A stretch of 64,000 bases of DNA, taken from Bacteroidota bacterium (GTDB taxonomy: Bacteria; Bacteroidota; Bacteroidia; Flavobacteriales; Flavobacteriaceae). Numbering within the stretch: the first letter of the stretch is position 1; the number at the start of each line of letters is the position of its first letter. The stretch lies in NCBI GenBank assembly GCA_024279425.1, contig JAJRRO010000133.1, positions 20,759 through 84,758 of the forward strand, given 5' to 3'. Below the pieces are notes generated by a model. It did not search any database and was not told where the DNA came from. It saw nothing but the letters and a program-made list of their open reading frames with translations. A program made the position numbers and the translations under genes. Positions 2,777 to 63,442 of the stretch are shown here, one piece after another.

Positions 2777-4951
2777 CTAAAAATCAATGGTGGCCCCCAA
2801 CAAAAAGTTGGCGCCAGCCTGTGGGTAATACCCGGCACCTTCAATAGTCGTTGTTGTATCTGGAATAGACCATGTATCATCATAGGTATAGAAATACCCG
2901 TTTGAAACATACTTGGCATTAAATATATTATTTAACAATGCAGACAAGGTAATGCTCTTGACCACTGAATTTGCTTTAATGATATATTGCACGTTAAAAT
3001 CGGTTTGAGAATAGGCGTCCAGTATTGAACTTTTAGCATCTATATTGCCCATATACTGTTTGCCCACATATTTACTCAACACTGAAATCTGTAATTCCTC
3101 CCTTGGGTTGTATGAAATTCTGTTTCCTAATACAATATCTGGTGAAAATGTGATATTGGTATTTCCCAAATCCTGCAACACCCCATCCCTCTGAAAAACG
3201 AACTCTTTATTTTTATTTGAGCTCAGAGCCATATTAGGGCTTATGGAGAATTTACTTCCCAAAGCGATGTTAGCATCAATCTCTAATCCAAAACGATAAC
3301 TATCACCTACATTGGCCCTCAATGGAGCACCTACATCATTCAGTTCCCCTGTAAGCACCAACTGATCCTTATAGTTCATGTAATACAAATTGGTGTTCAA
3401 TTGAACATCTGAAGAGATGTAACGCCACCCCAACTCATAATCATTCAATTTTTCGGGTTTAGGATTGCCGTTTTCATAGTCATTTCGATTGGGCTCTCGA
3501 TTTGCCACAGCATATGATAAATAGAACTTATTGTTTGAATCCAAATCATAGGTAATCCCCGCCTTGGGGTTAAAGAAGTTGAACGTGTCATCAACCAATC
3601 CTGTATCATCGCCATTGGCCTCATAACCTACTCCTCTGTATTGTAGGTCCCCAAAAAGACTCCAATTATCATTCAGTTTATAATTGGCCTTTGCGAATAC
3701 ATTAAAATCGGTCTTTTTGGAGGAGTCGTCATAGTATCTATCCCGAATGCTACTATTTGGAGCGAATTCCGCCCAAATCACCTCGCCAAAATGATCGCCC
3801 TCGTACTTGTTCCATCCACCTCCAAGAATCACGTTTAATTTTTCATTGGTATAATTGGCAGAAAAAACGGTACCGTAAAAATCATTATCCAACCATCTTC
3901 GACGAATTAAGTCTGTGGTATTTACCTCAGCTCCATTAACGGTCAATGGTTGAAAGCCGTATGTGGCAAAATCATCATCTTCCTTGAATTGTTCAAAGAA
4001 ACCACGTCCTCTGGTATAATGCAATGCCAGATTTGTGCTCCAACTATCATTCAATTGCTGGTTCCATAGAAGTTGGGCATGGTTTTGCTTATAATTGTCA
4101 ACTTCGTTTTCGTAAAATTGGGTGTTCCCATTTTCATCTATATAGATTCCGGATGGATTGAAAGTCCGATCGGACTCTAAAGTGACAGCATCAATACCAT
4201 ACCAAGCTTGATAAGTAATTTCATGGCCGCCAAAAAGTACGGCTTTCAATAGCGTATTTTCTTTTTTGAAAGCGCCTTGTAAGAAATAGGAATCCAACTT
4301 TGAAGAGGCTCTATCAATATATCCATCAGAACTGATTTTAGATAACCGTCCTGAAATCTCAACATTGTCCTTTAGCAAACCCGTACTAAACCTTATATTG
4401 TTTCTCAAAGTGTTATAACTCCCAACCGATGTCGAAATTTGACCAAAGGCCTCTTCGGATACACCATCGGTCACGATATTCAGGCTCGCCCCAAAGGCTC
4501 CCGCCCCATTGGTCGATGTGCCTACACCACGCTGTAGTTGCAAACTTTGGGTCGACGAAGCAAAGTCTGGCATGTTAACCCAAAACGTGCCGTGCGATTC
4601 AGAATCATTATAGGGAATTCCATTAATGGTCACGTTTACCCGTGTGGCGTCGCTTCCTCGAACACGTATTCCGGTATACCCTATACCTGCCCCTGCATCG
4701 GATGTGGTGACCACTGCAGGCATAAAATTCAATAGAATGGGAATATCCTGCCCCAAATTCCTAGGCTTTAATTGTTCTTTGGTAAGATTTGTAAATGTTA
4801 CCGGTGATTCTTTAGTGACCCGAATGGCAGAAACAAAGACTTCATCCAAGTCTATTTTTTTACCTTTTATCGAATCTATTGGTGTTTCTTGGGCCGATAG
4901 ACCCATGGCCAGGCCAATAAGGCCCATTGTTGTGAAAATAGATGATTTCAT
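2777..4951 (-). CDS. TonB-dependent outer-membrane receptor under TPP riboswitch control (candidate thiamine or thiamine-precursor OM transporter)
   Basis: Signal peptide MKSSIFTTMGLIGLAMGLSAQE from ATG at 4951 (ORF-track start 5047 is upstream of the likely start). Plug-domain motifs (DEVFVSAIR, TGIRVRG). Terminal residue F typical of a beta-barrel. THI-box riboswitch lies immediately upstream on the same strand. Confidence 0.85.
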   Translation of the reverse strand: MKSSIFTTMGLIGLAMGLSAQETPIDSIKGKKIDLDEVFVSAIRVTKESPVTFTNLTKEQLKPRNLGQDIPILLNFMPAVVTTSDAGAGIGYTGIRVRGSDATRVNVTINGIPYNDSESHGTFWVNMPDFASSTQSLQLQRGVGTSTNGAGAFGASLNIVTDGVSEEAFGQISTSVGSYNTLRNNIRFSTGLLKDNVEISGRLSKISSDGYIDRASSKLDSYFLQGAFKKENTLLKAVLFGGHEITYQAWYGIDAVTLESDRTFNPSGIYIDENGNTQFYENEVDNYKQNHAQLLWNQQLNDSWSTNLALHYTRGRGFFEQFKEDDDFATYGFQPLTVNGAEVNTTDLIRRRWLDNDFYGTVFSANYTNEKLNVILGGGWNKYEGDHFGEVIWAEFAPNSSIRDRYYDDSSKKTDFNVFAKANYKLNDNWSLFGDLQYRGVGYEANGDDTGLVDDTFNFFNPKAGITYDLDSNNKFYLSYAVANREPNRNDYENGNPKPEKLNDYELGWRYISSDVQLNTNLYYMNYKDQLVLTGELNDVGAPLRANVGDSYRFGLEIDANIALGSKFSISPNMALSSNKNKEFVFQRDGVLQDLGNTNITFSPDIVLGNRISYNPREELQISVLSKYVGKQYMGNIDAKSSILDAYSQTDFNVQYIIKANSVVKSITLSALLNNIFNAKYVSNGYFYTYDDTWSIPDTTTTIEGAGYYPQAGANFLLGATIDF

Positions 4952-5044
4952 CCGTAAAATATATTTACGAATAAAAGGGGCTATTATTCTTGTTAAAAAT
5001 TGATTTTTGGTTTCTTGTAAACCGATTGAAATTCCAAATAAGCG

Positions 5045-5140
5045 CAACGCACATCCCTTAGCAGCATTACCCGCCCAGGTTCCTTGGGTATAATCTCAGC
5101 CCTCCGATAGCTATCGGCAAGCACCCCTTTGAGATGGCAC
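5045..5140 (-). promoter_or_regulatory. TPP (thiamine pyrophosphate, THI-box) riboswitch in the 5' leader of the TonB-dependent receptor
   Basis: Minus-strand sequence GGGGTGCttgCCGATAGCTATCGGagGGCTGAGAttatACCCaagGAACCTGggcGGGTAATGCtGCtAAGGGA. It matches the THI-element conserved blocks in order: GGGGTGC, CTGAGA, ACCC, GAACCTG and GGTAATGC...AGGGA. A variable P3 hairpin lies between the first two blocks. The core spans about 5054-5127. Confidence 0.8.
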
Positions 5141-5233
5141 AAATGTACTATTGAAAAATAACTCATCATAACAAAAAATGAATTACTTTCAAAAAATTGG
5201 ATATAGCCGTTCTTAAACTGAGGTATTCCTTTG

Positions 5234-6772
5234 TTAAACCTGATGGGTAGGTTTCAACAAATCGTTGACGGTCTTAACCGGATTAAAGGTCGCAAGTGGC
5301 ACTTCAACAAAAATAGAATTCCAAAATGCCATGGCACCATTCCAAAGCCCAGGCAATTCCAATGCTTTCAACTCCCGGCCTTCTTTGGTCTTACTTGATA
5401 TAAAACCCTGTTTGTGGTCCACAAAATTCAAAAGATTGTACTTTTCTCCATTAAAGTTCTTTACTCCACATACCAAATCAACCGGATTGAAATGGGTCGA
5501 ATTTTTGAGAATATCAACTTGCTTTTCATTGGACATGTCTATTTGAGCCGATTCAATAATCTGTAAAACAATATGATTATGTGCATTCTTTATCCAAAAT
5601 GGCCCGCCGCCAGGTTCGCCCTCATTTTTGACCATTCCACAAATTCGGATAGGCCTATTAATTTTATCTTTCAATATCTCAATCTGCTCACCAATGCTAA
5701 AACCGGAATACTTATCAATAAAGCGGACATTAAGTTCATTTTCCAAAAAGGATTTGATTTCTGTCATCAACTGAGCCGACAAATTATTTTCGTCCAATAA
5801 TTTGGCATATTCAAAGGCCTTCTCCTGTACATTTAAAAGTAATCCCGCCAACATTTTTTTACTGTTTGCCAATTCCTCCTGAGCGTCTGGTACTACAACA
5901 TTATCTATGTTCTTTATAAAAATAATATCGGCCTCTTCTTCGTTAAGATTTTCTATCAGTGCCCCATGGCCTCCTGGTCTAAAAAGTAAAGACCCATCAG
6001 AATTACGAAATAAATTATTCTCCAAATCAACGGCGACTGTATCGGTGGAAGATTTTTGATAGGAGTATCCTATGTTAAATGAGGTTTCGGTCTCTTTTGA
6101 CAAGCGCGGGTTCACTTCCTTATATTGGGCGCTGAACATCTTCATATGTTGTTCGGAAATAGTAAAGTGCAGGTTAGCCTCATCACCCATTTTAGCATAA
6201 TTTGCCGCTTCCCTTAGATGTTCTTCAAAGGGAGTCGCACTATGGTCTCCATAATTGTGGAAGGGCAAAAGGCCTTTAGGATAAAATCCGTAATTCAACC
6301 CTCCTTCCAACATCATTTCCTTTACAAAAAGATAGATTTCTTCGTCCTTGTTGGCCGCCTTTCCTTTTATTCTTTCCTGAACTACATCATAAAAGGAAAA
6401 ATTCGTAAGGCCTTGACTAAAAAGGCGTATATCGGAATCATCGGTCCGATCAATGTAGTCTTCCAAACTTTCCTTACTTGGGTCGTAAACATCCAAAAAA
6501 TTGAACAACGTCTTGAACATTCTAGAGGCAGCACCAGAAGCCGGAACAAATTTAAGAATGGACAACTTGTCCATGGATCCCTCAAAGGTATTGATTAAGG
6601 CTTTTTGTTCCTTAGCTGTAAATTTGCTTATTCCATTACCTATCACAGCGGCATTTTCCAAATCGACAAAGGGTATTCCCTCTTTAAAAATTTCTACCTG
6701 ATTCCTTACTTTTTCTTTGGTTATACCCTTTTCGGCTAATAACTCTTGGTCTTTTTCGGTCAGTTGCATCAT
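5234..6772 (-). CDS. DUF4301-like protein with a UDP-sugar pyrophosphorylase (UDPGP)-like nucleotidyltransferase fold
   Basis: 512-aa ORF. Three motifs resemble UDPGP-family pyrophosphorylases: KFVPASGAASRMF (the G-x-G-T/S-R-L/M nucleotide-binding loop), RPGGHGALI (P-x-GHG) and IKNIDNVVV (N-x-DN-L/V). Its start ATGATG overlaps the TGA stop of the upstream kinase gene (ATGA overlap). Confidence 0.55.
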   Translation of the reverse strand: MMQLTEKDQELLAEKGITKEKVRNQVEIFKEGIPFVDLENAAVIGNGISKFTAKEQKALINTFEGSMDKLSILKFVPASGAASRMFKTLFNFLDVYDPSKESLEDYIDRTDDSDIRLFSQGLTNFSFYDVVQERIKGKAANKDEEIYLFVKEMMLEGGLNYGFYPKGLLPFHNYGDHSATPFEEHLREAANYAKMGDEANLHFTISEQHMKMFSAQYKEVNPRLSKETETSFNIGYSYQKSSTDTVAVDLENNLFRNSDGSLLFRPGGHGALIENLNEEEADIIFIKNIDNVVVPDAQEELANSKKMLAGLLLNVQEKAFEYAKLLDENNLSAQLMTEIKSFLENELNVRFIDKYSGFSIGEQIEILKDKINRPIRICGMVKNEGEPGGGPFWIKNAHNHIVLQIIESAQIDMSNEKQVDILKNSTHFNPVDLVCGVKNFNGEKYNLLNFVDHKQGFISSKTKEGRELKALELPGLWNGAMAFWNSIFVEVPLATFNPVKTVNDLLKPTHQV

Positions 6773-7332
6773 TTGTTCAATAAGTTATCAATGTGTTCTA
6801 CAGCAGTTTTAAGGCGTGTTTTTTTATCCCCTTTTAAGATAACAAAATTCCTATTATGTTTCTCCAAGGTTTCCTTGAAATATAAAAACATACGTTCCCG
6901 CTCATTGGGTTTGTCTCGTAAATCATCCGCCTGCCACGGAATATCTATATATGTAAGAAAATAAAGGTCATACGAATTCGCTAAAGCATATTTCTCCAAA
7001 CTTGAATCGCAATATCCTAAATAATAAGCCTCGGAATACACCTTGGTCTCCAACAGATCAGTATCGCATACCAGCAAGTCAGAGGCTTTTTTGGCCAAAT
7101 CATTTTCCAAGCGCATTTGCCCTTCGGCAATGGGCAATAAATCCTGAGGTTCACAGGTCTTTCTTTCATTGTTCCATTTATCCTGTAGATACGCTCTGGC
7201 ATATTCCGGCACCCATACTGTATTATAATGCCTGGCAAGCTGTTCGGACAAGGTGGTTTTCCCAGTAGACTCAGGGCCAAATAACACTACTTTAACGACA
7301 TCTGAGGGTTGTTGTCTAAATTTTTCTTCCAT
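6769..7332 (-). CDS. NadR-type P-loop kinase (ribosylnicotinamide kinase-like ATPase, AAA_28)
   Basis: 187 aa. Walker A motif VLFGPESTGKTT close to the N-terminus, as in the RNK domain of NadR. Overlaps both neighbouring genes, which implies translational coupling. Confidence 0.7.
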   Translation of the reverse strand: MEEKFRQQPSDVVKVVLFGPESTGKTTLSEQLARHYNTVWVPEYARAYLQDKWNNERKTCEPQDLLPIAEGQMRLENDLAKKASDLLVCDTDLLETKVYSEAYYLGYCDSSLEKYALANSYDLYFLTYIDIPWQADDLRDKPNERERMFLYFKETLEKHNRNFVILKGDKKTRLKTAVEHIDNLLNK

Positions 7333-7925
7333 GCAAGGTAACCATATATGGCAATGAACGTAAATATAAGATACTGAATACTTGTAAACGTAAAACCTTT
7401 ATAAAAATATAAAGGGACGGAAATAATATCCCCAATAATCCAATAAATCCAATTTTCAATTTTTCGTTTTGCCATAAGCCACATACCCACAAAAAATATC
7501 GCCGTTGTCACCGTGTCAACATAAGCTGTCCAACTTGTCCATTTATCAAAGATTTGATACACCGCGTACACAAAAACCAAGGTTACAATAAATATAAGAA
7601 CCGATGTTCTTTGTTCCTTTTTTGTAGTTGAGGAAATAGGAGTAAAATGTGTGGCATCTACTTTCCGGGTCCAAATATACCACCCATAGACGCTCATAAT
7701 AAAATAATACCCATTAATGAGCATGTCCCCTATTAAACCCCACTGATAAAGTAAATATACATAAATGGATGTGCTGATCATTCCTGTTGGATACACCAGA
7801 ATGTTGTTCTGCTTTGAAAACCAAACGGATAATAACCCAAAGATTACCGCAACAATCTCAAGTACAATATGATAGGTTTGATACTCGGCGTATTGACTGA
7901 ACAAATCATCAAAAATGTGGCTCAT
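7287..7925 (-). CDS. pnuC: PnuC-family (nicotinamide riboside/Pnu) integral membrane transporter. Substrate uncertain: NR (PnuC) or thiamine (PnuT).
   Basis: 212 aa, about 7 TM helices, aromatic-rich W/Y motifs typical of Pnu transporters. Co-operonic with a NadR-like kinase, as in PnuC-NadR systems. Confidence 0.7.
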   Translation of the reverse strand: MSHIFDDLFSQYAEYQTYHIVLEIVAVIFGLLSVWFSKQNNILVYPTGMISTSIYVYLLYQWGLIGDMLINGYYFIMSVYGWYIWTRKVDATHFTPISSTTKKEQRTSVLIFIVTLVFVYAVYQIFDKWTSWTAYVDTVTTAIFFVGMWLMAKRKIENWIYWIIGDIISVPLYFYKGFTFTSIQYLIFTFIAIYGYLAWKKNLDNNPQMSLK

Positions 7926-8169
7926 ATTCGCTTCGGTCAGATTTCACAACTTTCATGTATAATAGACCCTTATCCATGAGCTCAAAAGCTTCCTTGATTT
8001 GCCTGTTCAAAACCGCCATTACTTCATCATATGTACCAAAGACTTGGGTACTGAGAGGGTTCTCTAAAATTGTAAGTCCCGATGCTCTCAATTTCTTTAT
8101 AAAATCGACGATATGCTGTTCAAAATCATCTTGAAGTGGTGAAAAAGTAAGTTCAACTGAAATTTTCAT
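7909..8169 (-). CDS. MTH1187/YkoF-family (DUF77, thiamine-binding-protein-like) small protein
   Basis: Start taken at MKISVELTFSPLQDD (internal Met of the 101-aa track ORF). The pattern I-x-V-E-L-T-x-x-P-L ... GTYDEVMAVLNRQIKEAF matches the ferredoxin-like MTH1187/YkoF family. Its 3' end overlaps the pnuC start by 17 nt. Confidence 0.55.
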   Translation of the reverse strand: MKISVELTFSPLQDDFEQHIVDFIKKLRASGLTILENPLSTQVFGTYDEVMAVLNRQIKEAFELMDKGLLYMKVVKSDRSEYEPHF

Positions 8170-8210
8170 TATACGGTTGTTGGTTGTGTTGGTAAAACTA
8201 CTAAAAACAA

Positions 8211-8852
8211 TCAACTGTCACCCAAACGAAGAGCATATACGCAGGTAAAACCCTCAAATTCCAAAAATTGGATATCATATCGCGATATATCGCCTTTATA
8301 AATAACCTGCCCTCTAATTTTGCTGTCTGAAAAATCAAAGTCTTCAATGTTGATATGCTGCATAAAGCTAAGCCCTTCGATTGCATAGATTTTATAAAGT
8401 GATTCCTTACAACCCCAAACTATAGTGAATTTACGTACCAGGTCTTTTGTGCTTTTAATATGGCTATAAGCTTCAATCTGTGTGAATTTATGAGCGATTC
8501 GCGTGATTTTTGGACGTTGCATTTCAATATCAATGCCTACCTCAATAGTATCACTCACAATAATTCCGGTAAATTGATGGGAGTGTGTTATGCTAATATG
8601 TCTGCCATCAATCAAATGTGGCTTACCCACCTTGTCATAGAAAAGATCCTTATCTTCATAATCGGCTTTGGCCATTAAATGCCGTATACTCAAAAAACCC
8701 CTACGGTGCATTTCAGATTTCATACCGTCAATTCGGTCTTGACAATGCGGGGTTAAATGAATCCCCTGTGAAAGCTCGTCCTCGGATTCTTCAATCTTCC
8801 AAATATAAACCGTAACTGTCTGGTTTACCTGTATTGTTTTATAAAGAGGCAT
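8211..8852 (-). CDS. 4'-phosphopantetheinyl transferase (Sfp/AcpS superfamily)
   Basis: The [11 protein letters not shown] motif matches the (W/F)-x-x-KE-S-x-x-K PPTase signature. Start taken at MPLYKTIQV (ATG 8852) rather than the longer track ORF. Confidence 0.75.
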
Positions 8853-8872
8853 GGTGTTATTTAGGATATTCG

Positions 8873-8880
8873 TAACTTTG
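8873..8880 (+). promoter_or_regulatory. Bacteroidetes sigma-A -7 box (TAnnTTTG) upstream of ahcY
   Basis: TAACTTTG sits 58 nt upstream of the ahcY ATG. No Shine-Dalgarno sequence, consistent with Bacteroidota. Confidence 0.35.
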
Positions 8881-8937
8881 CGACTCTTTAAAAAGAACTG
8901 CAATAATCAAACAACGAAAGTAAAAATAAAAAAGGAT

Positions 8938-10254
8938 ATGGCTATCAAAACTGTTGCATATACACCGTATAAGGTAAAGGACATTTCTCTGGCAGATTGG
9001 GGAAGAAAGGAGATTGAATTGGCCGAAGCGGAAATGCCGGGACTTATGTCACTCAGGGAAGAGTATAAGAATGAGCAGCCGCTAAAAGGTACCCGTATAG
9101 CCGGTTGTTTGCATATGACCATACAAACGGCTGTACTGATTGAGACCTTGGTCGCATTAGGAGCGGATATTACCTGGAGTTCCTGTAACATTTTCTCAAC
9201 CCAGGACCATGCCGCTGCCGCTATAGCTGCTGCTGGCATTCCCGTTTATGCTTGGAAAGGCATGACTGAGGAGGAGTTTGACTGGTGCATTGAACAAACT
9301 TTGTTCTTTGGGGAAGACCGCCAACCTTTGAATATGATTTTGGATGATGGCGGTGACCTTACCAATATGGTATTGGATCAGTACCCGGAACTTGCAGCAG
9401 GTATCAGGGGCCTTTCAGAGGAGACCACAACCGGTGTTCACCGTTTATACGAAAGGGTAAAGAATGGCACATTGCCCATGCCCGCAATCAATGTGAACGA
9501 TTCCGTCACCAAATCGAAGTTCGATAATAAGTATGGATGTCGTGAAAGTGCCGTTGATGCCATTCGAAGGGCCACCGACACCATGTTAGCCGGTAAACGT
9601 GTAGTTGTCGCAGGATATGGTGATGTTGGCAAAGGTACTGCTGCTTCATTCAAAGGGGCCGGAGCCATAGTTACAGTTACTGAAATTGACCCGATTTGCG
9701 CGCTTCAAGCCTGTATGGATGGGTATGAGGTAAAACGCTTGGAAAACGTTGTGGGTAAGGCCGATGTGGTAATCACAACCACTGGAAACAAGGATATTAT
9801 CCAGGCCAAACATTTCAAGGCGATGCGCGACAAGGTCATTGTCTGCAATATAGGCCATTTTGATAATGAGATAGACATGGCTTGGTTGAATGAAAACTAC
9901 GGCAATACCAAGGACGAAATCAAACCGCAGGTCGATAAATATACCGTTGATGGTAAAGACATTATTTTATTGGCCGAAGGGAGATTGGTGAATTTAGGGT
10001 GCGCCACAGGGCATCCAAGTTTTGTCATGAGTAACTCGTTCACCAACCAAACCTTGGCCCAAATAGAACTTTGGAAAAACACAGATGCCTATGGGAACAA
10101 GGTGTATATGTTGCCAAAGTATTTGGATGAGAAGGTAGCCAAATTGCACTTATCTCGATTGGGAGCAGAGCTTACCGAACTACGTGAAGATCAGGCTGAA
10201 TATATTGGTGTTACTGTCGAAGGACCATTCAAGCCGGAGTATTATAGATATTAG
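8938..10254 (+). CDS. ahcY: Adenosylhomocysteinase (S-adenosyl-L-homocysteine hydrolase)
   Basis: Starts at [40 protein letters not shown]-binding motif GYGDVGKG. The family is highly conserved throughout. Confidence 0.95.
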
Positions 10255-14130: not shown

Positions 14131-16200
14131 ATGAAGAAATATTATATAACCTTGGTCTTTGGCATTATTGCCTTGAATTTACAGGCACAGATTGATAGAA
14201 CCCAGATACCCAAACCAGGGCCTGCCCCACAAATAAACTTACAGGAACCGCAGCATTTTGAATTGAAAAACGGACTAAAAGTCTTGGTAGTGGAAAACCA
14301 CAAGCTCCCTAGGGTTTCTATTCAACTTTTAATAGATAACCCTCCTATCCTTGAAGGTGACAAAGCTGGTGTGTCAAGCCTTGAGGCTAGTCTTTTGGGA
14401 AATGGCTCAAAGACAATCCCTAAGGATGACTTTAATGAAGAGGTCGATTTTCTGGGGGCACGAATACGTTTTGGTTCCCAAAGTGCTTTTGCCAGTTCAT
14501 TGTCCAAATATTTTCCAAGAATATTAGAGTTAATGGCAGATGCGGCGATCAACCCAAATTTCACTGAAGTCGAATTTGATAAAGAGAAGCAAAAACTGCT
14601 TACCGCCTTAAAAGCCCAAGAAAAAGATGTTTCAGCAATTGCAAGTAGGGTTCAAAGGGCATTGGCCTATGGTGCTAGTCACCCTTATGGAGAATTCACT
14701 ACGGAAGAAACCATAAATAATGTTTCCCTTTTGGATGTTGTTCAATTTTATGAGGATTATTTTGTTCCCGCCAATGCCTATTTGGTCATTATTGGTGATG
14801 TTGAATTTGACAGTGTACAAAAATTGGTAGAGGAACACTTTACACCATGGGTAAAGGCAGTCCCACCTTCCTTTCAATTTTCGAGACCCTCGAACGCTCA
14901 ATACACCCAAATAAATTTTGTTGATGTTCCCAATGCGGTGCAATCTGAGGTATCGGTAGAAAGTTTGGTAGACCTTACCATGAAAAATGAAGACTATTTG
15001 CATGTCTTAATGGCCAATCGCATCCTGGGCGGTGGTGCGCAGGGCCGTCTATTCTTAAACCTTCGGGAAGATAAGGCCTATACATACCACTCATATTCGA
15101 GCATAGGCAATGACAAATATGCCCCAGCTACATTTAAGGCCACGGCACAGGTACGCAATATGGTTACGGATAGCACGGTCGTCGAAATTCTAAAAGAACT
15201 TGACAAGATAATCAAAGAACCCGTCACAGATGATGAACTTAAAGATGCAAAAGCCAAATACGTGGGTAATTTTGTTCTTGCGCTTGAAAAACCTGAAACT
15301 ATCGCCAGATACGCTTTGAATATAGAAACGGAGGATTTACCAAAGGATTATTACAAGACCTATTTGGAACGTATAAATGCCATTTCTAAGGAAGATGTCC
15401 AAAAAGCTGCACAAAAATACATGACCATTGATAAGGCTCGGGTCGTTGTCACTGGAAAAGGGAGCGAAGTCATAGAAAACCTAGAAAAAATTACGTTCAA
15501 TAACAAAAGGGTTCCAGTCAAATACTACGACAAATATGCAAAAGGAAGTGAGAAGCCCAATTATGAGGTATCGGTTCCTGAGGGCTTGACAGCCCAAAAT
15601 GTTTTGGAGAAATATATTGAGGCTATTGGCGGCACAGACAAATTAATGGGAGTAGAATCGTATTCCCTTAGGGCTGAAGCTGAAATGCAAGGCATGAAAT
15701 TGAACCTAGAAGTCAAGAAAACTTCCAAAAATCAATTCATGCAAGATTTAAAAGTAATGGGCAATTCAATGAGCAAGCAAGTGGTTGATGGCAATAAAGG
15801 TTATATGGTAATGCAAGGTCAACGAAAGGATTTGGGAGAAGAAGAACTCAAGAAAGCAAAAGAAGAATCGGCCCCCTTCCCAGAGTTGAATTTACTCAAT
15901 ACCGATGTTGTACTTGAGGGCATTGAAGTGATAGATGGCAAAAAGGCCTATAAAATTAAAATCTCCAATGAAAAAACTTCTTTTTATGATATTGAAACAG
16001 GGTTGAAAGTTCAGGATGCTGTTAGTATTGAGACTCAAGGCCAGCAAATGAACACCATCTTCAACTATAGTGATTACCAGGAAGTTTCGGGTATTAAGTT
16101 CCCTTTTCTACTCAAACAGACCATGGGACCACAAAAGTTTGAATTTATTGTAAAGGAAATCAAGGTCAATGAAGGGGTTTCCGATGTAGATTTCGAATAA
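14131..16200 (+). CDS. M16-family peptidase paralog (non-catalytic partner) with an extra C-terminal domain of about 220 aa
   Basis: Signal peptide and M16 fold but no HxxEH motif. Begins 6 nt after the upstream M16 gene. At 689 aa it is about 250 aa longer than typical partners. Confidence 0.75.
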   Translation: MKKYYITLVFGIIALNLQAQIDRTQIPKPGPAPQINLQEPQHFELKNGLKVLVVENHKLPRVSIQLLIDNPPILEGDKAGVSSLEASLLGNGSKTIPKDDFNEEVDFLGARIRFGSQSAFASSLSKYFPRILELMADAAINPNFTEVEFDKEKQKLLTALKAQEKDVSAIASRVQRALAYGASHPYGEFTTEETINNVSLLDVVQFYEDYFVPANAYLVIIGDVEFDSVQKLVEEHFTPWVKAVPPSFQFSRPSNAQYTQINFVDVPNAVQSEVSVESLVDLTMKNEDYLHVLMANRILGGGAQGRLFLNLREDKAYTYHSYSSIGNDKYAPATFKATAQVRNMVTDSTVVEILKELDKIIKEPVTDDELKDAKAKYVGNFVLALEKPETIARYALNIETEDLPKDYYKTYLERINAISKEDVQKAAQKYMTIDKARVVVTGKGSEVIENLEKITFNNKRVPVKYYDKYAKGSEKPNYEVSVPEGLTAQNVLEKYIEAIGGTDKLMGVESYSLRAEAEMQGMKLNLEVKKTSKNQFMQDLKVMGNSMSKQVVDGNKGYMVMQGQRKDLGEEELKKAKEESAPFPELNLLNTDVVLEGIEVIDGKKAYKIKISNEKTSFYDIETGLKVQDAVSIETQGQQMNTIFNYSDYQEVSGIKFPFLLKQTMGPQKFEFIVKEIKVNEGVSDVDFE

Positions 16201-63281: not shown

Positions 63282-63442
63282 AATGTAACTCAAATTATCA
63301 AAAGAATTAAAAAATTATAATAACGAAAGGCTAGTCGAGTAAGCCAGGGGGATTTCACCCCTAACTTCTCACAGAACCGTACGTGAACCTCTCGATTCAT
63401 ACGGCTCTTATTATGTAGTCAATAGTTAGGTCAACTGATAAC

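Follow-up and report, generated by a model that had tools for sequence, protein, structure and literature searches.

DUF4301, a predicted divergent nucleotidyltransferase of the UDPGP superfamily, is linked to a Pnu-type facilitator and a NadR-like kinase in Flavobacteriaceae

What is a protein of the uncharacterised DUF4301 family doing at the end of an operon that encodes a vitamin-type transporter and a kinase? The question is raised by a 64,000-nucleotide stretch from a Bacteroidota bacterium of the Flavobacteriaceae (contig JAJRRO010000133.1, positions 20,759 to 84,758), here called the window, in which a DUF4301 gene for 512 residues lies at 5234..6772. An earlier note, made from the letters of this DNA, had read three motifs of the UDPGP-type pyrophosphorylases in the translation and proposed a sugar-1-phosphate or mononucleotide nucleotidylyltransferase. 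The open reading frame it reported exists, but its strand had been left unstated. We place the gene on the minus strand, as are all features of the window described below; it has an ATG start, and the same span on the plus strand gives a frame full of stops. Here we argue that the product is very probably a UDPGP-superfamily nucleotidyltransferase and, more tentatively, that it acts on the product of the kinase encoded beside it.

The match to PF14134 (DUF4301) is full-length, covering residues 5-511 against positions 1-507 of the 507 in the profile (E = 1e-216, Pfam); no NCBIfam model matches the protein. Its nearest homologs belong to Maribacter, Zobellia and Arenibacter, which points to a marine member of the Flavobacteriaceae as the source of the window. 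The family is large: an exhaustive search of 50%-identity representatives returned 2867 clusters at E ≤ 1e-3, and 1150 remain at E ≤ 1e-30. A profile search found members in Cytophagales, Bacteroidales, Marinilabiliales, Lentimicrobiaceae and Chlorobi-type metagenome-assembled genomes (MAGs), and one MAG labelled Thermodesulfobacteriota was among the named matches. In the literature that we searched, DUF4301 is named in a single paper, in passing, and PF14134 or IPR025393 nowhere, and no published characterisation was found.

That the motifs belong to the family came from an alignment of 112 DUF4301 representatives that are 39-50% identical to the window protein, in which 33 columns are invariant. 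Two of the three motifs stand as they had been read. RPGGHGALI (R265-PGGHGALI-273; 5954..5980), interpreted as the P-x-GHG of UDPGP enzymes, was recovered on re-translation and is in register with PPGHGDL of the yeast UGPase 2i5k; G268, H269, G270 and L272 are present in 112 of 112 sequences and P266 in 107, and the nearby N275 is also invariant. FIKNIDNVVV (F285-IKNIDNVVV-294; 5891..5920), taken as the N-x-DN motif, is likewise present and in register with VSNGDNLGA of the yeast enzyme, with N288 and N291 invariant, D290 conserved in 111 sequences and K287 in 103.

The first motif departs from the canonical form. KFVPASGAASRMF (residues 74-86, K74-FVPASGAASRMF-86; 6515..6553) comes right after strand 72-76 in the predicted model and would be a modified nucleotide-binding (phosphate) loop. 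The string itself is present, but its reading as G-x-G-[ST]-R-M does not hold, the actual loop being S-G-A-A-[ST]-R-M. Across the family the motif reads P-A-S-G-A-A-[ST]-R-M-F, in which [ST]-R-M and G80 are kept and the flanking glycines are Ala or Ser; alanine replaces the second glycine of the canonical loop in 106 of the 112 sequences, and profile methods gave no significant alignment in this region. P77, S79, G80, R84 and M85 are nevertheless found in all 112, and position 83 alternates between S (63 sequences) and T (49).

Two further conserved segments lie towards the C-terminus. One is a glycine loop, G385-EPGGGPFW-393 (5594..5620), followed by LQIIESAQ, in which G388, G389, P391 and E407 are invariant. 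The other, F496-NPVKTVNDLL-506 (5255..5287), corresponds by conservation and alignment to the F-x-P-V-K lysine motif of UDPGP enzymes and is in register with FLPVKTCSDLL of UGPases; F496, K500 and L505 are invariant, P498 is kept in 111 sequences and D504 in 110. Q239, N429 and K461 do not vary either. Since the motif residues are invariant in an alignment of this diversity, the motifs are no chance matches, and the proposal of the earlier note passes the test of conservation across the family.

Sequence comparison suggests a distant kinship with the UDPGP enzymes. The UDPGP profile (PF01704) matches the window protein below threshold (17.1 bits against a cut-off of 22, E = 0.0025) and over residues 465-509 only; UDPGP is the sole recurrent second Pfam family, with sub-threshold matches in 30 of 91 diverse members (best E = 1.4e-6). 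When the Protein Data Bank (PDB) was searched with a profile of 34 DUF4301 sequences, yeast UGPase 2i5k was the best match (E = 0.028), the only other one being a ribosomal protein (E = 0.29), and PGGHG, N-x-DN and F-x-PVK-x-x-DLL were in register in the alignment. Neither a single-sequence phmmer search of the PDB nor one with a more diverse profile of 112 sequences returned anything. An hhalign comparison with UGPases gave E = 4e-4 at a probability of 34%; it is a weak test limited to the C-terminal half, because the UDPGP profile came from a search with a 104-residue UGPase fragment that returned short, exon-like fragments only. Its register pairs GGPFW with GGTLI, LQIVESAQI with LRLLEVAQV, HFNPVD with FNTNN and FNPVKTVNDLL with FLPVKxxSDLL.

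Structure prediction places DUF4301 in the same company. The AlphaFold model built from 81 diverse sequences is compact and confident (pLDDT 93.1, pTM 0.91), and the best 50 Foldseek matches are all UAP, UGP or USP, with GlmU, GalU and RmlA coming after these UDP-sugar pyrophosphorylases. A first model, for which 34 close homologs were used, was of middling quality (pLDDT 72.8) and gave the same top six structure matches. The fold comparison suggested in the earlier note thus puts DUF4301 with the UDPGP/GT-A enzymes. As the motifs are conserved and the fold is related, the fold-level interpretation stands. Motif conservation, the sub-threshold UDPGP matches, the 2i5k and hhalign registers and the model together support the enzyme class that had been proposed, and we consider it highly probable that DUF4301 is a UDPGP/GT-A-superfamily nucleotidyltransferase, its activity being a prediction from sequence and model.

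DUF4301 shares with the UDPGP enzymes the order of its signatures, which runs from the phosphate loop with [ST]-R-M through Q, P-x-G-H-G, N-x-D-N, the GG loop, E and F-N to F-x-P-V-K-x-x-D-L-L. The differences are as clear. The loop is A-S-G-A-A-[ST]-R-M in place of G-G-x-G-T-x-M/L (G-G-x-G-T-x-[ML]-G), and the model shows helical insertions of ∼75 residues after the loop (87-160) and after N-x-D-N (295-371) that UDPGP enzymes do not have. The C-terminal domain, a beta-helix in UGPases, is missing: UGPase sequences run at least 100 residues beyond PVK, whereas DUF4301 ends 12 residues past K500 and 6 past the F496-506 motif. DUF4301 is also found mainly in the Bacteroidota/Chlorobi group and is linked or fused to a P-loop kinase, unlike the UDPGP family. 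As regards membership of PF01704, DUF4301 has the catalytic-core fold, P-x-G-H-G, N-x-D-N and F-x-P-V-K, and lacks the C-terminal domain and a score at the gathering threshold. Because of that score and the missing domain, we treat DUF4301 as a divergent, separate family within the superfamily, as judged from sequence and model, and not as a UGPase or UAP.

What such an enzyme may act on is suggested by its neighbours. In the window, DUF4301 is the last gene of an operon that runs from an MTH1187/YkoF-family protein through a Pnu facilitator and an AAA_28 kinase; together with a PPTase gene ahead of it, the genes on the minus strand overlap or abut. The PPTase gene (8903-8211) lies upstream of the MTH1187/YkoF-family gene (7909..8169, 86 residues from an ATG), which is the first gene of the conserved block and precedes the Pnu gene in most loci. 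Its match to the 'thiamine-binding protein' family PF01910 is 26.3 bits, barely over the cut-off of 24.9, and it shows weak similarity to SP2199 (2ibo). The facilitator (7287..7925, 212 residues) matches PF04973 with E = 8e-55 and TIGR01528 with 111 bits (cut-off 42). The P-loop kinase (6769..7332, 187 residues) matches PF13521 (AAA_28; E = 3.4e-44) and the ribosylnicotinamide-kinase (RNK) part of TIGR01526 (E = 5e-28), and its best PDB sequence matches are the RNK domains of NadR, namely 9x6f (E = 1.6e-14) followed by 8x7f and 1lw7. It is therefore clearly a kinase of the NadR-RNK type, with a substrate specificity predicted from its sequence. Its stop codon shares an ATGA with the DUF4301 start, the junction reading AAATGATG. 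In an Rfam scan of 4800-9100, no riboswitch of the NAD type or any other kind turned up upstream of the operon, nor a second thiamine pyrophosphate (TPP) element besides the one described below.

The linkage is not peculiar to the window. We surveyed 80 genome loci, 75 of them from Flavobacteriaceae. The order Pnu-kinase-DUF4301, with the kinase immediately upstream, was found in ∼72 of the 75, and there the kinase and DUF4301 reading frames almost always overlap or abut; in 26 loci the overlap was confirmed as exactly the 4-nucleotide ATGA. In two loci without the kinase (L072 and L080), DUF4301 still follows the Pnu gene. Moreover, the kinase and DUF4301 are fused in frame into proteins of 695-720 residues in five loci, from Allomuricauda, Flagellimonas spongiicola (699 residues), two Croceivirga and Flavobacterium orientale (704 residues); the carriers include the isolates F. 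spongiicola, Croceivirga radicis and F. orientale. Fusions were also found in three further 50%-identity clusters, one of them directly after a Pnu gene. The junctions are of at least four different sequence types, which argues for repeated fusion.

The unfused DUF4301 proteins P0024, P0029, P0071 and P0100 are labelled 'NAD metabolism ATPase/kinase' in NCBI records. The label suits the adjacent or fused AAA_28 kinase rather than DUF4301, and looks like annotation carry-over.

From these observations we infer a salvage route. DUF4301 would be a catalytically competent, divergent nucleotidyltransferase that converts an NTP and a phosphorylated compound, X-phosphate, to NDP-X and pyrophosphate. 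By analogy with UDP-sugar pyrophosphorylases, the residues that bind the nucleotide and both phosphates would be S79-G80...[ST]83-R84-M85, H269, N288-x-D290-N291 and K500. A small vitamin-type compound with a quaternary nitrogen would enter through the Pnu channel, phosphorylation by the kinase would trap it, and DUF4301 would couple the kinase product to a nucleotide. Pnu transporters are known to pair with a kinase that traps their substrate (PMC5749112). The genomic context makes a mononucleotide-type substrate worth serious weight. We put the action of DUF4301 on the product of the adjacent kinase at somewhat below an even chance, and as to the identity of X the individual choices are each unlikely: a compound of the nicotinamide-riboside type comes first, one of the thiamine type is less probable, and another riboside or other compound is the least probable.

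Read in this way, the trio would be a functional analogue of the route from nicotinamide riboside through NMN to NAD by PnuC, NadR-RNK and NadR-NMNAT, with an unrelated transferase of the GT-A type. The logic has the same three parts, a Pnu facilitator, an RNK-type P-loop kinase and a nucleotidyltransferase, and NadR carries kinase and transferase on one polypeptide, as the kinase-DUF4301 fusions do. In the fusions, however, the kinase is N-terminal and the transferase C-terminal, the reverse of NadR, and there is no DNA-binding domain. The transporter is closer to PnuT than to the PnuC of the NadR/PnuC system. The NMNAT of NadR has the HIGH-motif, Rossmann-type (cytidylyltransferase-like) fold described in PMC7221760. 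With its GT-A/UDPGP fold, DUF4301 could at most work like an NMNAT and is not a member of that family.

Enzymes that combine a kinase with a nucleotidyltransferase for salvage are also known from the Bacteroides fucokinase/GDP-fucose pyrophosphorylase FKP and from AmgK-MurU and LicA-LicC, whose kinases, GHMP- or APH-type enzymes, have sugars or choline as substrates. Unlike these, DUF4301 is partnered with a P-loop RNK-type kinase and a Pnu vitamin facilitator. The link to these two genes, with its natural fusions, points to an undescribed last step of vitamin-type salvage in marine Flavobacteriaceae. Marine Flavobacteriaceae have been reported to be active in vitamin B1 uptake, and the B1-related transcripts of Bacteroidetes in the sea to be dominated by omr1 and pnuC (PMC12442306).

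Several observations weigh against a role tied to the kinase. The closest structures all use sugar-1-phosphates and UTP. Gene order by itself says little, because two housekeeping genes, AhcY and the PPTase, likewise keep their place near DUF4301 in Flavobacteriaceae and some of the kinase adjacency is no more than synteny; a trivial mutation suffices to fuse genes that overlap by 4 nucleotides. The substrate signals conflict, as the kinase looks like one for nicotinamide riboside, the transporter looks like PnuT, and a receptor behind a TPP riboswitch lies nearby. Finally, we found no Pnu or AAA_28 neighbour of DUF4301 in 17 places, from outside Flavobacteriaceae and from Capnocytophaga (the stand-alone places are L067, L068, L073, L074, L078, L081-L087, L089-L091 and one place without DNA). 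The motif residues are all unchanged in these stand-alone members, and the substrate must therefore exist without the uptake module too. Several of the stand-alone contexts are related to carbohydrates. In Capnocytophaga a GH65 disaccharide phosphorylase gene (L067:5735-7882, plus strand) lies immediately upstream of DUF4301; in L086 the gene lies within a Wza/Wzc/Wzi polysaccharide export locus, and in L085 in a row MFS-NTP_transferase-GH20-DUF4301.

Somewhat less probable than coupling to the kinase is a housekeeping role for DUF4301 as a sugar-1-phosphate uridylyltransferase, in which it would be a bacterial branch of the eukaryote-type UDP-glucose, UDP-GlcNAc and UDP-sugar pyrophosphorylases and would not depend on the kinase. 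In that case the Pnu protein and the kinase would form a vitamin uptake and trapping module complete in itself, its co-transcription with DUF4301 in Flavobacteriaceae would be fortuitous, and the fusions would be accidents to which overlapping genes are prone and which are tolerated. Such a role fits the nearest structures, all UDP-sugar pyrophosphorylases ahead of GlmU, GalU and RmlA, and the very large size of the family, which stands alone across Bacteroidota and Chlorobi-type lineages. It is also consistent with Q239, G388-G389, E407, N429 and K500, which are invariant counterparts of residues that we take to contact the sugar and uracil in UGP and UAP structures. The invariant active site of the stand-alone members and the carbohydrate contexts keep a sugar-1-phosphate substrate in play. 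Furthermore, GT3 glycogen synthases occur in Bacteroidetes, and eukaryotic GT3 enzymes use UDP-glucose (PMC11046441). Against a housekeeping role are the repeated, independent in-frame fusions with their junction types, the near-universal overlapping or abutting junctions in Flavobacteriaceae, the persistence of DUF4301 beside the Pnu gene after loss of the kinase, and the lack of a recurrent sugar-1-kinase or sugar transporter neighbour. If the substrate is an ordinary sugar-1-phosphate, an annotation gap would be filled for a near-universal Bacteroidota gene. Literature searches gave no usable lists of residue-level substrate determinants for the NadR RNK domain or for human UGP.

The stand-alone loci have neighbours of their own. 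A sulfotransferase-like protein of 210-213 residues is encoded directly upstream of DUF4301 in a Chlorobi-type MAG (L083:1763-2395, plus strand), where it abuts DUF4301, and in a metagenome contig (L089:3367-4008, plus strand), where it overlaps the DUF4301 start; it is a second, different recurrent partner. The two copies share YGxxNSGxIYLEWL, have no P-loop lysine and are 48% identical to each other. In L084, L085, L087, L090 and the place of P0355, a convergent pyridoxamine-phosphate-oxidase (PNPOx) gene lies just downstream of DUF4301, followed in four of the five by a DUF1684 gene. The lineages are probably related, and this adjacency may be plain synteny. The P-loop-like neighbours in L083, L084 and L090 bear no relation to AAA_28 or at most a marginal similarity.

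A variant of the kinase-coupled reading, in which the compound is thiamine, is improbable in our estimate but has several signals in its favour. Here the Pnu protein would be a PnuT that partners a TPP-controlled TonB receptor, the RNK-like kinase would phosphorylate thiamine in place of Tnr3, and DUF4301 would join a thiamine phosphate to a nucleotide, giving for instance an adenosine-thiamine di- or triphosphate, or would process it in another way. When the Pnu protein was compared by BLASTP with reference sequences from the supplement of PMC7749635, PnuT scored best (78 bits), ahead of PnuX (65), PnuC of N. mucosa (55) and PnuC of H. influenzae (38), and the same order was found in 74 of 75 loci. 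The identity to PnuT is 27% only, however, with one reference sequence per class. The length of 212 residues is PnuT-like, shorter than PnuC proteins of the nicotinamide-riboside type, and the protein has the WxxWxxxD motif with the Asp of PnuT and PnuX, where the aligned PnuC of N. mucosa has Asn. This Asp of PnuT is needed for thiamine binding (PMC5749112). The opening of the block by a gene of the YkoF/MTH1187 'thiamine-binding' family also suits thiamine.

The NCBIfam equivalog model (TIGR01528) calls the Pnu protein PnuC (nicotinamide riboside), despite its closer likeness to PnuT. The same operon slot in loci L001-L080 holds two Pnu subtypes, 44-54% and 59-80% identical to the Pnu protein of the window.

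The other thiamine signals lie downstream of DUF4301. A TPP-riboswitch-like element at 5036..5138 matches RF00059 over its full length (model 1-105) with 34.6 bits (gathering score 54.3; E = 3e-4), and is upstream of a gene for a TonB-dependent receptor that resembles the thiamine-regulated outer-membrane receptors Omr1/OMthi (2777..4951, probable ATG start at 4951) with Plug and TonB_dep_Rec domains. We found the THI-box core just upstream of the orthologous receptor in 40 Flavobacteriaceae loci and near the receptor in a few more. In view of this conservation despite a score below the gathering threshold, flavobacterial TPP riboswitches seem to be under-scored by the Rfam model. In ∼60 loci, the majority, the receptor is found 0.2-6.6 kb downstream of DUF4301. 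We considered whether the element could regulate the DUF4301 operon and decided against it: its position is downstream of DUF4301 and always ahead of the TonB receptor, so that it belongs to the next transcription unit, and across the loci the THI-box core was never found ahead of the Pnu block. The receptor unit is separable from the DUF4301 operon, as in L003, where a two-component system fills the ∼6 kb between DUF4301 and the receptor; a gap of this size is present in ∼25 loci. In the window the gene after the receptor is unrelated, and the receptor appears to be monocistronic.

The arrangement recalls a locus of gut Bacteroidetes in which OMthi (Omr1), pnuT and the pyrophosphokinase gene tnr3 form one operon under a TPP riboswitch (PMC5613172). 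In both, a TonB receptor stands behind a TPP or TPP-like element and a PnuT-like facilitator is nearby. In contrast to that locus, the riboswitch here controls the receptor only, the order and the transcription units differ, and no thiamine pyrophosphokinase (TPK/Tnr3) domain was found among the cluster genes or downstream of the receptor; the Pnu gene is followed instead by the RNK-like kinase and DUF4301. That these two fill the slot of tnr3 speaks for thiamine. The points on the other side are that the Pnu-kinase-DUF4301 operon has no TPP riboswitch of its own, that the kinase is clearly NadR-RNK-like, that TPP synthesis needs no nucleotidyl step, and that unrelated two-component genes part the receptor from the operon in many loci. 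DUF4301 is, moreover, widespread yet stand-alone in Bacteroidales, where OMthi-pnuT-tnr3 operons are typical (PMC5613172).

The kinase-coupled reading has a bolder form, in which DUF4301 would be a new 'vitamin-nucleotide' synthase, either a GT-A-fold NMN/NaMN adenylyltransferase that replaces the NadR/NadM-type NMNAT non-orthologously in Bacteroidota or an enzyme joining a nucleotide to a thiamine phosphate. We think this unlikely. Should the first be true, the Pnu channel, the stand-alone RNK-type kinase and DUF4301 would amount to an inverted, split NadR. Should the second be true, a gene would have been found for the making of thiaminylated adenine nucleotides; to our knowledge, the enzyme that makes them has never been assigned to a gene.

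It is very improbable that DUF4301 has lost catalysis and persists as a nucleotidyltransferase relic, with a regulatory or ligand-binding role for instance: the altered G-G-x-G-T loop and the score below the Pfam UDPGP threshold could be taken in favour of such a relic, but R84, H269, N288, D290 (111 of 112), N291 and K500 are conserved, the model is compact and confident, and the invariance of the catalytic-motif counterparts across 112 sequences is the pattern of an active enzyme. The UDPGP/GT-A placement makes DUF4301 directly assayable, with these six residues as candidates for catalysis.

Two observations concern other elements. A match to RF00029 at 63334-63409 (61.5 bits, E = 1e-9) suggests a group II catalytic intron near the end of the window. 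In the Flavobacterium locus L080, there are two copies of the Flavo-1 small RNA (RF01705), at 5868-5949 on the minus strand (79.9 bits) and at 15262-15340 on the plus strand (51.2 bits), ∼2 kb upstream and ∼5.7 kb downstream of the DUF4301 gene.

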